This document shows, one piece after another, positions 5,632-64,000 of a stretch of DNA of 64,000 nt. This DNA comes from Schmidtea polychroa. Lineage: Eukaryota. A program made the translations under genes and the position numbers. The stretch lies in NCBI GenBank assembly GCA_044892525.1, contig CM097885.1:5148001-5212000 (forward strand), in the 5' to 3' direction. The notes under the pieces are model-generated. The model was not told where the DNA came from and did no database searches. It worked only from the letters and a program-made list of their open reading frames with translations. The number at the start of each line of letters is the position of its first letter. The stretch's first letter is position 1.

Positions 5632-6230
5632 TTAACATGAACAATGTTCCTCTTCAAACTTATCTTCGGCTTTTATAATTTTCAAAATTGGTTTGGTTTG
5701 GTCTCTGCTTGCATTATACCCTTGAATTAATATGGTAACCATGCAGGTTATTTTGCTCATCTTACCACCATTGGGAATCATATCCAAATCGTTTCTAATG
5801 AACATATCCTCATCATCAAATTCAATATTTTCATTGATCCTCTGAAATAATTGTCCCAATAGCATCTTTTCGTGAAACTTGATTTTGGAAAGTCTTACAT
5901 TGTAGAAACATTTTTCCAGAGTTACAGGTTCTTAATAATAAATAATAATAATAAAATCCAAAATAATTTATAGAAACTTACCTTAAATGTATAGGAAATT
6001 GGACAATACAAATAATTTAGTTTGTATTGCATGAATTCGACTGGCTTTTTTGTATCCACTCGAACATTGACCAAGGTTTCCGTGGATAATGTCGTTTCTT
6101 TAAATTTCCTTTTTCTGAATTCCTGAGCGGCATCTGCATTTTTTCTCTTCAAAACTCCTAGATTAAAAAACTAATAAATGGGATATGTGTAAACGACAAC
6201 AAACCTGTAATTTGATTATCCGTTTGTAGT
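5632..6230 (-). CDS. Hypothetical multi-exon viral accessory ORF
   Basis: ORFs 5922-6152 and 5632-5865 with donor AAG|GTAAGT at ~5980 and CAG|GTTTGT...CTAG at ~6205-6160; no recognisable domain. Confidence 0.4.
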
Positions 6231-6811: not shown

Positions 6812-6856
6812 GCAAATCCTCGTTACTTATATTTGAAGAAATTGATAAAGATCCAA

Positions 6857-7297
6857 TCAAATCTTTACATCGTTTATAATTCCTTCAACAATAGTATGAA
6901 AATCTAAATTTTTAATACCTAGTACAACTATTTTACCACTTGAAAATATATTTACACATAGTGGATTATATTTTGTATAACGCAGAGCGGGAAATAATTC
7001 AGGCTCATATATACAATCTCAATCTAATAACTTTGCTAAATTATTCAAATTAATAGATTGTTCAACCTTGGTAGCTATAGTAAGACTTTGAACTTGAATA
7101 TCTTTGATATTATATTGCAAATTCTCGAATTCGATAGGCTTCTTACAACCTATTATACAACATTTACCATTTTTGAAAAATATAATAGTATATTTTCCAG
7201 TTTTGTCAACATATTGTTGTGGTTTATACTTGGGGAAATTCATCATACCAACAGTTTCCAAAGACACACGACCTCTATAATTAATATTTGTCAACAT
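6857..7297 (-). pseudogene. TATA-binding protein (TBP)-like gene carried by the Polinton-like element; one in-frame stop
   Basis: Reading through TGA at 7019-7021: repeat 1 IIFFKNGKCCIIGCK; repeat 2 INLNNLA...IYEPELFPALRYTKYNPLCVNIFSSGKIVVLGIK, matching TBP YEPELFPGLIYR...IFxSGKVVLTG; intronless. Confidence 0.85.
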
Positions 7298-7323
7298 TTC
7301 TACTGAATATTTATAAAAATCAA

Positions 7324-7325
<2 letters not shown>

Positions 7326-7385
<60 letters not shown>
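7326..7385. repeat. (TA)n microsatellite between the divergent TBP-like and ATPase genes
   Basis: About 30 TA units. Confidence 0.95.
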
Positions 7386-7388
<3 letters not shown>

Positions 7389-7460
7389 ATATTATAGAGT
7401 AATTAAATCAATTTATTCTTTACGATATAAACAAAATTAATTTTTAAATGAATATTAAAA

Positions 7461-8086
7461 ATGGAACTAAGAAATGATGCTGTATATCAAATAGTCGGAC
7501 CAAGTGGTAGAGGCAAAACTTGGTTTGTTTGCAAATTACTAAAATCACATTTATTTAAATCAAAATTTAACAAAAATTATTGGCATCGAGTGCTGATCAA
7601 GAACACGGATTGACTCAATCAAGTTTCTGTAAATTGAAAAATATGAAAATATTAGAGGGATTTGATAAAAATTGGTCCAGTAGACTAAAGAAGGGGGATG
7701 TCATAATTATTGATGACTTGTATCAAGAGGCTAATAAAGAAAAGAATTTCAATAATTTATTTACCAAAATCAGTAGACACGTTGGTGTAACTGTTATTTT
7801 TATAACTCAAAATATATTTCATCAAGGCGTTGCATATTGAACTCGTAATTTAAATGTTCAATATTTGGTTGTTTTTAAAAACGCTAGAGATGCAACAGTT
7901 ATAGATTTTCTTGCAAGACAAGCATATCCAAATAATCGTAATTTTCTGATTAATGCATTTCAAGATGCTACAAAACAACCTCATTGATATATATTTCTTG
8001 ATTTCACACAACAGTGTCCTGATGATTTAAGAGTGAGAACTGATATTTTCAATAAAGAAGGGTCAATGGTTTATAAACAAAGTTAA
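7461..8086 (+). pseudogene. Polinton A32/FtsK-like DNA packaging ATPase
   Basis: Walker A GPSGRGKT, Walker B VIIIDDLY, then LFTKISRH..VIFITQNIF..RNLNVQYLVVFKNARD..LARQAYP..AFQDATKQPH.YIFLDFTQ..LRVRTDIF; frameshift and stops. Confidence 0.92.
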
Positions 8087-8669: not shown

Positions 8670-9272
8670 ATGGAGAAGATATGGACGAATCCAAAAGACG
8701 AAGCAGGTTTCGGTGTAGTGGCAAAAATAAAGAAAAGAGTTCCGAATTCGAAAAAAGAAACCCAGAAGTGGTTATCAGATCAGCTTGCGTACAGTTTGAA
8801 CAAACCAATGCGGAAAAGATTTCCAAAAAGAGCCTATAAAACATTTGCAAATGGATTTGATGGAGATGATACCGTATTTGAAAATTAACAATGGAAATAA
8901 ATATATTTTAACATGTATTAATGTATTCAGCAGGTTTGCACGAGCAATACCAGTCAAGGCAAAATCTGTAGATGAAATGTCCAAGGCAATTAATATTTTA
9001 TTTAAAGATGGACATCCTAATAACTTGCAAACAGATTTGGGTATTATTATTATTATTATTATTAAAAACAATAAAATGATAATTTAAGCCTTTTGCTGCA
9101 AATAATGTATTTAATGAAAGAATTTTCGACTATATGATAGTCCTTGTCAATCTCAAGGACTATCGTATAGTCGAAAATTCTTTCATTAAATTCATTATTT
9201 GCAGCAAAAGGCTTAAATTATCATTTTATTGTTTTAAATAATAAATGCTGCTACCAAGCAATCATCATTTTA

Positions 9273-9342
<70 letters not shown>

Positions 9343-9937
9343 TTAGGTAAAGAATTCTACAATAGCAAAGTTAAGCAAATCCTCAATAAACTGATAATAA
9401 ATCACTACTCGGTACATTCTCAATACAAAGCTGCCAATGTTGAAAGATTTAATCGAACATTGAGAGATAGATTAAAGAAATTGTTCGTGCATCAAGGTAA
9501 TAAAAAATGGGTAAATGCTTTACCGAAAATAATAACAAGTTATAATCATTCATCACATCGAGGACTGAATGGATTGAGACCGGTTGATATTACATCGAAA
9601 ACATTCTATTCTAAGAAATCTGTAAAAATTGCAAAACCTTAATATAAAGTCGGTGACCATGTTAAAATTAGTAAAATTAGTGCATCACCATTTATTAAAT
9701 TTTTTCGTACAAATTGGAGTGATGAAGTCTTTGTAATTTCAAAAATAAATACTAAACAGAATCCTGTAATGTATGTCATCAAAGACAGTGATAATAATAT
9801 TGTACAAGGAAAATTTTATGAGCAGGAATTACAAGTCATTCCTCCTCCAAAAGTATTTAGAATTCAAAAAATATTGAAAACTAAAAAGGTCGGCAAGGAT
9901 AAACAATACTATGTCAAATGGCATGGTTATCAGTAAA
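8670..9937 (+). pseudogene. Polinton rve-type integrase with C-terminal chromodomain-like region
   Basis: QMDL..KYILTCINVFSRFARAIP..LQTDLG|KEFYNS..KAANVERFNRTLR..YNHSSHR..YKVGDHVKISK..NWSDEVF..GKFYEQELQ..YYVKWHGY; interrupted by insertion 9041-9346. Confidence 0.93.
9041..9346. repeat. Hairpin insertion (~88-bp inverted arms, 7-nt loop) flanked by (ATT)n; GT...AG bounded
   Basis: Arms 9058-9146 and 9154-9243; a related single arm lies at ~56258-56370, so it is a dispersed repeat. Confidence 0.9.
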
Positions 9938-9949
9938 AGACCTAGTAAA

Positions 9950-10100
9950 GTGAATTTTTATACTATTTTGCCGAGCAATAGTTGCTCATTAATTCATCCA
10001 GACAATCAAGCCAGTAAATTCATGGTCAATCTCCAGAATCCGATTTCTTTAAATGGGGACTGGGAAGTTGCACTGCAAGATTTTACATTCGTGTACAACT
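9950..10100 (+). pseudogene. Polinton minor capsid (penton) N-terminal fragment
   Basis: NFYTILPSNSC..HPDNQASKFMVNLQNPISLNGDWEVAL matches the FYxxLPSNS...WEVAL penton start. Confidence 0.85.
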
Positions 10101-10286
10101 TTACATTACTTTACATTTGTTTTGGCCCCAGATTTTGATTTGAATCAGAGTCAATTACCTCAAAATGGAAATTTACGATTATATATAAAGTTTGCAAAAG
10201 CTATTACAGAACCTGTGCATGTTATAATATATGGAGTATTTGAAAATGAAGTTCAAATTACTGCAAATAGAACCGTTCTGGTATAA
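10100..10286 (+). pseudogene. Polinton major capsid protein C-terminal fragment
   Basis: FTFVLAPD..GNLRLYIKFAKAITEPVHVIIYGVFENEVQITANRTV matches the Polinton MCP C-terminus. Confidence 0.8.
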
Positions 10287-10349: not shown

Positions 10350-10688
10350 AATAGTTCTGTTCAGGTTAATCGAATTGGAAAACAAATATTAGGAAATGAA
10401 TATTTAGGAGTTTTTCCTCTCGATAAAATACCATTTTTGAAAAATAATCAAGCCATAAACGTCAATACCCCTGCATCTCATCTCGGCGGAGAGCATTGGA
10501 TTGCAATCTATATGAAACCAGATAAGATACATGTATTCGATTCTATGGGTTTCTACTATCCTGCTTTATTGGTTTCGAAACTACAAACAATGGGCAAACC
10601 TATTGTATATAATAAAACAATGTATCAACACCCTTTAACTCGTACGTGCGGACAACATTGTTTAGGATGGATTATGTCTATTAAATAA
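10350..10688 (+). CDS. Adenain-like (adenoviral-type) cysteine protease; start uncertain or frameshifted
   Basis: YLGVFPLD..INVNT..GEHWIAI..VFDSMG..YQHPLTRTCGQHC: catalytic H, D, Q and C all present. Confidence 0.88.
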   Translation, partial: NSSVQVNRIGKQILGNEYLGVFPLDKIPFLKNNQAINVNTPASHLGGEHWIAIYMKPDKIHVFDSMGFYYPALLVSKLQTMGKPIVYNKTMYQHPLTRTCGQHCLGWIMSIK

Positions 10689-21154: not shown

Positions 21155-22560
21155 ATCGAAAAGAAATAGAACCATATCATCTAATGAAGAACTATCAAGT
21201 AGTAAAAGGAGACAAACACAATCTCCATCAACTCAGAGAAACAAATTGAAAATGAAAGGAGGAGGCGCACCAACAGACCCAGATGTGCCAATACCAAACT
21301 TCGACTTTACTCTGAATAATGAGTATAATATTGAATGTAACCACTGTAAAGAAAAAGACGTATATAAGACCAAAAAATACGATGATGCTTGGAACCATAT
21401 GATAAATAAGCATAAAAATGGATTAAAAAATAAGGATGTATTAAAAGATAAATCCCAGCCAATGATCAAGTGTGTACAATGTGAAAAACCATTCAAAGGA
21501 AATGAATGCCAAAATCATGCAAAAATCCACACAGATCGTGATATTAAAAACAAACGAATTGGATCAACAATAGACCACAGTGACATTCCATCACAGAACA
21601 GCTGACCATCACTGGCTGCAATGGAGACTTACATCAAAATTCTCCTGGAACAAAACGAATCAATAAATAAAAACATCAAATACATTGAACCAAGACTGGC
21701 AAATTTGCTGATCAATCGAAATTTGAGAACATTTCATAATGAAATCAAGATAGACTCCCTGATTGGATGGGAACTAATAGTCTGGCTTATTCACTGGAAC
21801 AACTGCCATTGGATTGTTTACCTGGCTAACTATGAGGATAAAACCTCTATTATCCTGGACTCTGACAATCAAATGACACCATTGCAAAAGTGTAATATAA
21901 AAGACAGACTAGATAAATTCCTGGAAAATACAGTGGAAGAAAGAACTATCTTTAAATCAATAGAAAACAGACTAATTCCTCAACAATCAAATGACTATGA
22001 TTGTGGAACATACGTCCTACAATTCATTGAGGACTTTGTGAATAAACCTGAACGACTGAATTATCAGACCCCAGACTCAATCAAAATTAGAAACATAATT
22101 GGGAAGCAAATTATGGAAGAATTGAAAGATACCAAGAAGAATACACCAAAGAAGTCAAATAAAGAAATAGACGAATTAATTCTCAAATTGAAGTTACTAC
22201 AGATAGACATAGATTCGGTACTTCAATGGTTCACGAACAAATATAATGAATCAATCCCTAAACAAAAGAACAAAAGAGGTGGAAAGATCAACATCTCCAA
22301 ATGCTCATATCAAATACAAAGATTATTTGCTATAGCTCCAAAAAGAGCAATAAAGGAAATATATAAAAACGAGTCAGCCCCAGCGGACCTTCCCAAAAGC
22401 ATCTTAGATGCTTATTTCATAAAAGAAATTCCAGATATCCGGGAATGATTCGGCACCAGGAGAAGATAACATCCCTATCAGACAGTGGAAGAAATGGATG
22501 GAGAGTGGAGTACTCCTGGACATCTTCAATTATATAAAAAGGACACATATTAATGCGCAA
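21155..22560 (+). mobile_element. NeSL/LIN-type non-LTR retrotransposon 5' fragment (5'-deleted copy)
   Basis: Two CCHH zinc fingers (CNHC..HMINKH; CVQC..HAKIH) and Ulp1/C48 protease (HWIVY..ILDSD..PQQSNDYDCG); truncated before RT. Confidence 0.85.
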
Positions 22561-22775
22561 AAAATAACGAAATCTCTTGTATATATATATTATGAATAAT
22601 AATGGTAACAATACCTTTGACGTTTAACTTGCACTCGGTGGCACTCGATATTCATTAAACTCACATTACACTGTTGCTCTTTCATTTTATTTGGGTACAC
22701 ATCTATGTGCTGTGTCCTCTCATCAATTATTAGGATCTCACCAATGAATGATCATCACAAGTTATCAATCATAAT

Positions 22776-22915
<140 letters not shown>

Positions 22916-29317: not shown

Positions 29318-29567
29318 TATTTATTTAATTTATATTTAATTAATTATTATTTTATTTATTATTATTATTAAATTAATTATTATTATTAAGAAATGTATAT
29401 ATAACTATTATTACCAATTGAATGTCCGCCATAATTGGTTCTGAGATTGAATGGGAAGTAGATAAAGATGAATCTGAGGATGCAGAACTACTGGCTGGAA
29501 TTGTAACTGATTGGCTTGAAAAAAAGCTGCCACTGTTACTCAAAGCTTGGCTTGTACTTGACTATTA

Positions 29568-29669
<102 letters not shown>

Positions 29670-29884
29670 ATTATGATTGATAACTTGTGATGATCATTCA
29701 TTGGTGAGATCCTAATAATTGATGAGAGGACACAGCACATAGATGTGTACCCAAATAAAATGAAAGAGCAACAGTGTAATGTGAGTTTAATGAATATCGA
29801 GTGCCACCGAGTGCAAGTTAAACGTCAAAGGTATTGTTACCATTATTATTCATAATATATATATACAAGAGATTTCGTTATTTT

Positions 29885-32345
29885 TTGCGCATTAATATGT
29901 GTCCTTTTTATATAATTGAAGATGTCCAGGAGTACTCCACTCTCCATCCATTTCTTCCACTGTCTGATAGGGATGTTATCTTCTCCTGGTGCCGAATCAT
30001 TCCCGGATATCTGGAATTTCTTTTATGAAATAAGCATCTAAGATGCTTTTGGGAAGGTCCGCTGGGGCTGACTCGTTTTTATATATTTCCTTTATTGCTC
30101 TTTTTGGAGCTATAGCAAATAATCTTTGTATTTGATATGAGCATTTGGAGATGTTGATCTTTCCACCTCTTTTGTTCTTTTGTTTAGGGATTGATTCATT
30201 ATATTTGTTCGTGAACCATTGAAGTACCGAATCTATGTCTATCTGTAGTAACTTCAATTTGAGAATTAATTCGTCTATTTCTTTATTTGACTTCTTTGGT
30301 GTATTCTTCTTGGTATCTTTCAATTCTTCCATAATTTGCTTCCCAATTATGTTTCTAATTTTGATTGAGTCTGGGGTCTGATAATTCAGTCGTTCAGGTT
30401 TATTCACAAAGTCCTCAATGAATTGTAGGACGTATGTTCCACAATCATAGTCATTTGATTGTTGAGGAATTAGTCTGTTTTCTATTGATTTAAAGATAGT
30501 TCTTTCTTCCACTGTATTTTCCAGGAATTTATCTAGTCTGTCTTTTATATTACACTTTTGCAATGGTGTCATTTGATTGTCAGAGTCCAGGATAATAGAG
30601 GTTTTATCCTCATAGTTAGCCAGGTAAACAATCCAATGGCAGTTGTTCCAGTGAATAAGCCAGACTATTAGTTCCCATCCAATCAGGGAGTCTATCTTGA
30701 TTTCATTATGAAATGTTCTCAAATTTCGATTGATCAGCAAATTTGCCAGTCTTGGTTCAATGTATTTGATGTTTTTATTTATTGATTCGTTTTGTTCCAG
30801 GAGAATTTTGATGTAAGTCTCCATTGCAGCCAGTGATGGTCAGCTGTTCTGTGATGGAATGTCACTGTGGTCTATTGTTGTTGATCCAATTCGTTTGTTT
30901 TTAATATCACGATCTGTGTGGATTTTTGCATGATTTTGGCATTCATTTCCTTTGAATGGTTTTTCACATTGTACACACTTGATCATTGGCTGGGATTTAT
31001 CTTTTAATACATCCTTATTTTTTAATCCATTTTTATGCTTATTTATCATATGGTTCCAAGCATCATCGTATTTTTTGGTCTTATATACGTCTTTTTCTTT
31101 ACAGTGGTTACATTCAATATTATACTCATTATTCAGAGTAAAGTCGAAGTCTGGTATTGGCACATCTGGGTCTGTTGGTGCGCCTCCTCCTTTCATTTTC
31201 AATTTGTTTCTCTGAGTTGATGGAGATTGTGTTTGTCTCCTTTTACTACTTGATAGTTCTTCATTAGATGATATGGTTCTATTTCTTTTCGATAATTTTG
31301 TGTTTTTGTCTATTTTTGGCTCCTTAAAGATACCATACACTGCTGTAGTATTATCTTCAGCAATAATTCCCTTTGGGGTATGACTTTTTTCTATAATTTC
31401 TTTTACAGTTTCTGTTGGAGATACTTCTATAGTTTCAGGGATAATCTCACTCTGTATGCTGCTTTCTGTTTCTATCAATACAACGGACTCTTTTTCCTTG
31501 GGTTCATTGGGTATTGATTGTTTTTCTCCGAACAGAGTTATGCATTTCTGAAACTTGAATTGGCGACTTATTCCAACCGTTGTCCTTTGGAAAAAGAATT
31601 GGAAAAAATTCGCAACTAAAGTTTGCTCTTCTTGATCCTTTTATTAATCTGTTTATCTTCAGGTTGTCTTTTTCGCTAACACTCTGGTTTTTCGTCCTAG
31701 GCTTGAGATTTGTTAACCAGCTTTCCGGTACCGTGAAATATTTAGCAAAATTTGACATGTCAAATTTTGATTCTTTGAATTCATTCATGTTATCTTTAAT
31801 GTACCTGCTTACAATGTTGTAAGTTATAAGCAAGGCATCATTGTTCTTGAAATTATATTTGTGAGTAGCCAGTAGAAATTGTTTCACCTCCACAAAGGTT
31901 TCATTCGATATATTCATTTTCACATAATTCTCGAAGTTGCTCTTCAGGAAAATTTTTCTTTTTGATTTGTATTTTTTGGGTTTGAATGTATTGACATCGA
32001 CCGTCTCATTGTTGTCATTGTTGTCAGTCCATTCAATTGGATTTCTTTTAATATTTTTATAATTTTTCGATTTTGGCTTTGATTTGGTTTTTTCAATTTT
32101 TTCCTCTTTATGATTTAAGATTGGGAATTCCTTTTCAAGTGTTTCATTGTCTAGAATTGAAAGAGCATTGTAGCGATTTGGTGGAGTAACCATTTTTTGG
32201 AGATGTTCAGTGTCAGAGATATCATCCAGGTCAACATTCTGATTGTTCTGCGAAGCAGAACGAGTCTTCACGGAGGGCCCCGAAGAATGGCTACTCAAAA
32301 CGGTTTTTATTGTTAACTTTGAAAGAGACTGCTGGTAAATGTTTG
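29885..32345 (-). mobile_element. NeSL/LIN-type non-LTR retrotransposon 5' portion (fuller copy): N-terminal region, 2 CCHH fingers, Ulp1 protease
   Basis: Consecutive ORFs 31504-32298, 30840-31478 and 29997-30824 form one ORF broken by stops/frameshift; contains the PNRYNALS motif; no RT. Confidence 0.88.
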
Positions 32346-32956
32346 AATAACAACAACAAGAAGCAAGTTATAACAGAGAAAACAAAAAAACCCGCATTAT
32401 AAAACATACTTAACATTCAAAGTTGCTAACGCCCTAAATAATGATAATTATAAAGCATTTTCATTCGAATTATCAAAAAAAAATTGGAATACCAAAGGGG
32501 GACCGTACCTGTATCGTAATATGACTTCTTACCTATATCGTAAAGATAGAAATGGACCAATATCGTAAAAGTTAAAAATGGACCTATATCGTAATCCAGG
32601 TTTAATCTGTATATTATAAAATAGAGATAGAGATAATTTATTTTTCAAACATTCAATAATTTAAATGACAGGTTTAATGATAAAGTCAATTTTTTCACCA
32701 CAAGATGGACAAACAGGGATGTCTGAATTTCTAACTGATTAATATACCCTTGCGACATGTTGAATGTGACCAGTACCCTTGCTAGCAATACCCATAGGGG
32801 GACAGAATATTTAGCCGGATAAACTCAGACTATATGGTCTTTATTAATATATCAAAATACTGTTACTTTGAGTTACATGAATGTTTTTTTGTCTCCATAT
32901 TTCTTGTTACAATATAGAAGAAGAAATTAAATTACGATATTAATTAACATTGCTTC

Positions 32957-55791: not shown

Positions 55792-64000
<8,209 letters not shown>

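Follow-up and report, generated by a model that had tools for sequence, protein, structure and literature searches.

The window analysed here, a stretch of 64,000 nucleotides from Schmidtea polychroa, contains a copy of what appears to be a Maverick/Polinton-type element, as judged from an integrase gene, an ATPase-like gene and an adenain-like protease gene. The integrase is interrupted by an insert with a hairpin at its centre. The features discussed below are as follows, with positions being those of the window.

7461..8086 (about), plus strand: packaging-ATPase-like gene, disrupted; Walker A seen by eye, and a sister copy matches Pox_A32 weakly (E 0.011) over the corresponding region
8670..9040, plus strand: Maverick/Polinton integrase before the insert, ending in QTDL and the first base of the Gly codon; 8857-9042 matches Pfam rve (E 0.0023)
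9041..9346, plus strand: GT(ATT)nTTTAG family-wide spacer, likely a spliceosomal intron, grown to 306 nt by Penelope, from copy comparison
9041..9062, plus strand: GT donor-like end and left (TAT)7 of the original spacer, from the sequence and hairpin-free copies
9063..9154, minus strand: inverted, 5'-truncated Penelope 3' end (left arm); blastn, 98% to a longer natural copy in locus L193
9114..9154, minus strand: minimal type-I hammerhead pattern, from a pattern scan, compared by eye with PMC4209133
9154..9272, plus strand: forward Penelope 3' end (right arm, 9154-9244) and a tail of about 28 nt found on that side only, from copy comparison
9273..9346, plus strand: right (TAT)23 and TTTAG acceptor-like end of the original spacer, from the sequence and hairpin-free copies
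9347..9955, plus strand: integrase after the insert, with the catalytic Glu region and a chromodomain-like end; Pfam rve_3 E 0.009, chromo E 6e-4 in a sister copy
10350..10688, plus strand: adenain-like cysteine protease gene; Peptidase_C5 E 8e-4, and E 1e-5 in a sister copy
56258..56364, minus strand: a single, older arm of the same Penelope 3' end, a relic at 85-86% identity

The sister-copy integrase matched the Pfam families rve (E 1e-6) and chromo (E 6e-4), both below the cut-off. Database searches gave 837 integrase homologues at E<=1e-30, and all 120 matches listed carry PF00665. A sister copy has, about 7.5 kb downstream of its integrase, a fragment of protein-primed PolB (pPolB; E 2.5e-5, below the cut-off; 91 matches genome-wide). 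In the window, no pPolB match was found among the long ORFs scanned, candidate capsid ORFs had no Pfam match, and no convincing pair of terminal inverted repeats was found around the Maverick copy, a 28-nt inverted match inside the protease region being taken as chance. The rve integrase with a chromodomain, the A32-like ATPase, the adenain-like protease and the pPolB fragment of the sister copy are all as in animal Mavericks/Polintons. The window copy lacks about 2.2 kb just upstream of the protease gene (join at 10107/10110), and pairwise alignment with another natural copy placed three lesions in the integrase on either side of the insert: deletions of 17 nt near 8844 and of 19 nt near 9931, and a stop at 9640. 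The window copy is decayed and presumably under no selection to splice.

The same copy has a TBP-like ORF at about 6830-7400 on the minus strand (Pfam TBP E 1.5e-4), also matched in a copy of family C (see below). On the minus strand, at about 5930-5985 and 6160-6210, one of the element's accessory genes seems to be interrupted by short host-type introns, judging from an AG/GTAAG donor and from a change of frame over some 50 nt of AT-rich DNA. Elsewhere in the window, a nested inverted duplication of about 30 kb (11089-41851), with arms 99-100% complementary, is either a real palindrome or an assembly fold-back. A non-LTR retrotransposon fragment at 21156-22900, with a mirror copy at 29500-32370, has an Ulp1 protease domain (Pfam E 7e-15) and then runs into a long (AAT)n tract; we take this fragment to be NeSL-like.

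The initial annotation described 9041-9346 as a GT..AG insertion whose removal restores the integrase frame at the second catalytic Asp, and this description held. The insert is 306 nt long, starts with GT, ends with AG, and lies inside the Gly codon that follows Q-T-D-L; the two flanks share one reading frame, and there are in-frame stops within the insert. Its parts are, in order, (TAT)7, the hairpin, the tail of about 28 nt, (TAT)23 and TTTAG. The D of QTDLG is the second catalytic Asp, aligning with the TDNG/TDxG Asp of retroviral integrase cores from the PDB in an alignment that used an uninterrupted natural homologue in place of the window copy.

The hairpin arms, at 9056-9146 and 9154-9244, are 91 nt long (about 88 bp had been noted), 97% complementary and separated by a 7-nt loop. 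The RNA fold has a z of -21, and none of 100 shuffles was as stable. Copies 98-100% identical to the right arm are spread across large contigs, and a 19-mer from this arm has 2,527 exact matches (control 0). Upstream of the 19-mer, many of the first 30 loci share the same long sequence with an ORF; the ORF of the Penelope parent in L193 matched RVT_1 (E 1.1e-14) and, at its C-terminus, GIY-YIG (E 7e-6), both over the cut-off. Both window arms match the 3' end of this RT+GIY-YIG element, in opposite orientations, in agreement with the earlier suggestion of inverted Penelope termini; the related single arm reported near 56258 was recovered at 56258-56364, with 85-86% identity. By sequence, then, the hairpin is the inverted, truncated 3' end of a common Penelope-like element.

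Among the best-matching 30 hairpin loci, window included, 28 are palindromic and 24 were scored by script as having a repeat tract on each side, the two tracts being of one type at all 24. An assembly artefact was rejected, since the same layout is found at 27 other loci with small differences. Target duplications of 13 and 15 bp were seen in two copies outside clean tracts, and none was clear in two more; in the window a target duplication would be hidden in the ATT repeat. The Penelope family favours ATT/AAT tracts. In the available text of Craig et al. 2021 (PMC8557442), endonuclease-bearing PLEs are described with an inverted 5'-truncated copy, a 30-40-bp tail at one end and a microsatellite bias that hides target duplications. 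The insertion studied here is like these elements, as that text presents them, in the RT and C-terminal GIY-YIG of its parent, the heavy 5' truncation, the inverted copy, the one-sided tail and the microsatellite bias concealing target duplications. It differs in its target, which is (ATT/AAT)n where that text gives (TA)n, (CA)n or (C)n, and in that the window copy retains only about 120 nt of the element.

Insertions of this Penelope family are often palindromes of 1-4 kb (L084, L088/L089, L090/L091, L094/L095 and L106/L107). The window hairpin thus stands at the short end of a continuous range of sizes. Another Penelope-type RT/endonuclease fragment, a distant one with 25-31% identity to the family studied, lies at 61286-62263 and is enclosed by inverted repeats at 61130-61272 and 62203-62345.

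The centre of the hairpin had been called hammerhead-like, and the scan did find a complete minimal pattern, a putative hammerhead on the minus strand at 9114-9154, with a U3-A8 core variant, an extra base between positions 9 and 10.1, a 6-bp helix II and a 4-bp helix I. The plus-strand arm is without the start of the hammerhead core; as only the minus-strand motif is complete, integrase-sense RNA would be without a hammerhead. The U3-A8 variant, the one base between 9 and 10.1, the G10.1-C11.1 pair, the short helix I, the near absence of helix III and the occurrence of motif pairs on opposite strands are all as in the minimal hammerheads of metazoan PLEs, to the extent that these are set out in the available text of Cervera and De la Pena 2014 (PMC4209133). 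Helix II, in contrast, is 6 bp here and 7-8 bp in the S. mansoni families of that text. A search of Rfam with the hairpin gave no hammerhead match and only sub-threshold microRNA-type matches, which were rejected as an effect of any generic hairpin. A hammerhead-like string, CTGATGA..GAAA, is also present at 62431-62471.

The closest copies of the integrase, referred to as family A, were found with the part after the insert as query, so that there was no selection on the insert. There were 150 scored copies at 95-98% identity, and the 29 closest besides the window were compared. A GT(ATT)n..AG insert stands at the same base in 27 of the 29, and the hairpin is in none of them; one of the other two has lost a donor base (TT..AG), and the second, which is without exon 1, keeps the ATT tract and the AG. 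Spacer lengths ran from 36 to 198 nt in the 28 measurable copies, and every one was a multiple of three. A donor-side 20-mer has 1,837 exact matches genome-wide. Of the first 30 in genome order, 28 were measurable, 27 of these being hairpin-free and the 28th the window copy, which alone among the 30 holds Penelope sequence. The hairpin-free spacers of this sample were multiples of three in 24 of 27 cases (3 were not) and stop-free in the frame read in all 27, and many family A copies have a single long open frame running through the spacer. Since 24 of the 27 spacers are 3n and all 27 are stop-free, frame alone cannot separate an intron from translated poly-isoleucine.

The short TT(G/A)GGTA repeat at the ends of the insert had been likened to a target duplication; since copies without the hairpin carry the repeat as well, the hairpin did not produce it. 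Because hairpin-free copies have the same GT..AG and the same end repeat, the spacer, its GT and AG and its short end repeat are all older than the hairpin. The fallback offered by the initial annotation, that the hairpin landed in a small existing intron, agrees with the GT..AG spacer that sister copies carry without a hairpin. We think it very probable that the hairpin is a 5'-truncated, inverted Penelope insertion in an (ATT)n spacer present without it in sister copies, the spacer being likely an inherited spliceosomal intron.

Under this preferred reading, the starting point is GT(ATT)nTTTAG in the Gly codon after the second catalytic Asp; at the same base, related families have AT-rich GT..AG inserts of 42-43 nt. 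Slippage in family A may have turned a short intron there into an ATT repeat, which would make spacer lengths vary in steps of three. Parent elements would splice the spacer to make integrase. An RT+GIY-YIG Penelope element favouring ATT/AAT would then have inserted in the window copy, as suggested by the structure seen here together with a mechanism taken from the literature: reverse transcription would have stopped after about 120 nt, and the addition of an inverted 3'-end copy would have given the hairpin. The in-frame length of the window insert would be a one-in-three coincidence.

To other families at the same site we applied two patterns. The first, allowing 0-30 nt at the site, gave 23 places, 13 of them uninterrupted. 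The 12 of these 13 that were inspected fall in one family, which shares only some 70-75% identity with the window copy, and the uninterrupted integrases (about 73% identical) are a separate family and not the empty site. The second, for inserts of about 30-60 nt, gave 834 places; the 100 matches listed yielded a class A2 with a fixed 42-nt half-repeat, a class D with a 42-nt non-repeat insert and a class C with a 43-nt insert. In family C, the 43-nt frameshifting GT..AG insert was present in 15 of 20 loci compared, with both sides open in the fully read copy. In family D, the 42-nt GT..AG insert contains an in-frame stop; at family D loci, L131 for example, an 11-nt direct repeat flanks the insert, as in a duplication-born intron. 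Family B has no insert, and B, C and D share a 3-residue deletion absent from A. Thus GT..AG ends are at a shared position in A, A2, C and D, with bodies that are untranslatable in C (frameshift) and D (stop). With one representative per family and the part after the insert (exon 2), dN/dS between families was 0.05-0.13 in 8 of 10 pairs, dS being saturated in two. Because dN/dS is this low (0.05-0.13), the integrase stayed under selection while carrying the insert. The available text of PMC8097293 and of bioRxiv 10.1101/2022.07.12.499685 describes the core genes of vertebrate and nematode Mavericks as intronless, with introns only in nematode cargo genes. Unlike those animal Mavericks/Polintons, 3 of the 4 families sampled here have a GT..AG insert in the catalytic core of the integrase, in one of them a pure ATT repeat.

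The database homologues, whose identity is 48-71%, were ascertained as single open frames, and none of the 24 that were read has an insert at this site. The protein database search found no near-identical family A protein without the poly-isoleucine run, the best identity being 71%, a result with no bearing on splicing. A quick tree of the part after the insert was made from 68 rows. Of these, 20 came from the genome, limited to four per class and to sequences with 185 open codons or more; 43 were drawn from the first 45 database matches, and 5 were outgroups. The families of this genome were grouped weakly (82), and the order of A, B and C+D was not separated (support 82 and 85). The tree fits one gain and a loss of the insert as well as two gains.

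These comparisons bear on an alternative that concerns the older history of the site. The ATT spacer may itself have been left earlier by a retroelement or repair event, as repeat filler between duplicated TTTAGGTA(A) words, independently in A and in C/D. Intron gain by duplication of AGGT words is in print, as the available text of PMC3265369 and PMC4974935 shows, and may apply to the older origin of the spacer. The inserts do lie between direct repeats, of 8 nt in A and of 11 nt in D, the outside homologues are uninterrupted, and B, which is without an insert, shares with C and D the deletion that A lacks, as independent gains would have it. However, the flanking repeats equal the usual splice consensus, so that convergence can produce them, and the outside homologues were chosen as single open frames in the first place. 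Further, the inserts of A2, C and D share their position and a length of 42-43 nt, as a single origin predicts, and the tree, with support of 82 and 85, does not separate the families. We regard a duplication origin as possible but not probable; it concerns the spacer only, and the reading of the hairpin is unchanged by it.

As to splicing, the ATT spacer is likely an inherited spliceosomal intron, to judge from the comparison of copies. A conserved integrase that has an untranslatable GT..AG insert in its catalytic core, in high-copy families, would be best explained by splicing. Sequencing runs taken to be RNA by guesswork, in contigs that drop rare forms, were looked at for families A and C. 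When reads were aligned to a short-repeat copy of family A, the repeat (1455-1504) was masked or skipped, leaving the junction unreadable. For family C, no joint at the 43-nt insert was listed in the probable-RNA runs; one contig bridges the insert unspliced, and a second contig, from the same study, covers the insert but extends only 20 letters past the donor. The unspliced contig is compatible with a retained intron, with read-through of decayed copies and with DNA being present in the run. Taken together, these runs speak mostly against splicing or say nothing of it. Several contigs of run X4 stop in A runs at L113:1460-1565, shortly before the family C integrase and within its start; these ends are poly(A) sites of the upstream gene or internal priming.

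An alternative that keeps the Penelope part unchanged is that the family A spacer is unspliced, being either read through as poly-isoleucine or carried by an integrase-dead family moved in trans by the uninterrupted family. The spacers that are 3n and stop-free (24 of 27), the long open frame across the spacer in many copies, the unspliced family C contig and the existence of an uninterrupted integrase family in the genome all speak for it. Trinucleotide slippage by itself yields 3n lengths, however, and 10-60 or more hydrophobic residues right after the catalytic Asp should not be tolerated. Low dN/dS, including 0.10 for A against A2, argues for a working integrase in the lineage, families C and D cannot be read through, and the uninterrupted family is rare by pattern (13 against 1,837 matches, though with different patterns). 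We consider an unspliced spacer improbable.

Last is the proposal of the initial annotation that the hairpin inserted in an uninterrupted integrase and, by duplicating a GGT/AGGT target, made its own splice sites in the manner of an introner. The exact GT..AG ends, the 3n length and the short direct repeat at the ends had suggested it, and the Penelope family is a dispersed one of near-identical copies (98-100%, with the 2,527 exact 19-mer matches), as introner families are. Introners inside Maverick-like elements are known in dinoflagellates, according to the available text of PMC11957031, and the window insert is like those described there in being a mobile element within GT..AG ends in a Maverick gene. 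It is unlike them in that the Penelope element supplies no splice sites, the site is already interrupted in copies without the element, and other copies are not frame-preserving exonic insertions. Other copies of the hairpin had been expected to be splice-compatible exonic insertions, but under a lenient rule only 3 of 29 had even loosely GT..AG-like ends, on either strand, which is about chance by rough arithmetic made with no shuffled control. Two tight patterns gave six more Penelope insertions in the same spacer of other Maverick copies, a lower bound since the patterns admit only short repeat tracts; because their lengths and layouts differ, the six are independent. The measurable totals are 306 nt (the window), 311, 464 and 882 nt, in frame in 2 of 4 cases, or in 1 of 3 besides the window; copies of the element thus do not generally carry splice sites or preserve frame. 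With 27 of 29 hairpin-free copies already showing the same GT..AG ends and repeat, with the uninterrupted integrases being a separate family about 73% identical, and with splice-like ends in 3 of 29 hairpin copies and frame kept in 1 of 3 measurable spacer insertions, an introner-like origin is scarcely credible. As an ordinary Penelope insertion, the hairpin has nothing to tell about intron gain.

A larger possibility is that this Maverick lineage put its integrase under host splicing control, with an active-site intron that is usually retained, splicing being confined to some cells, and that in the largest family this intron is a pure, length-unstable (ATT)n that is also a recurrent landing pad for Penelope knock-out of integrases. 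The third intron of the P element is the parallel for such cell-restricted splicing. We hold this idea to be rather doubtful. Our literature search, which did not extend to Kapitonov and Jurka 2006 or to Repbase, where introns of this kind may already be annotated, gave no report of a microsatellite intron in a Maverick integrase; the available text of PMC10748475, PMC8502044 and PMC6431247 contains nothing on one.

For scans of intron gain, the locus is a caution that in-frame GT..AG insertions in repeats need a sister-copy check. An intron made only of (ATT)n, from 36 to about 240 nt over some 1,800 pattern matches, would be a natural series showing how little sequence the spliceosome needs. 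Finally, a likely intron in the integrase active site, found across families with near-saturated synonymous sites, would tie the virus-like Mavericks to the host spliceosome.
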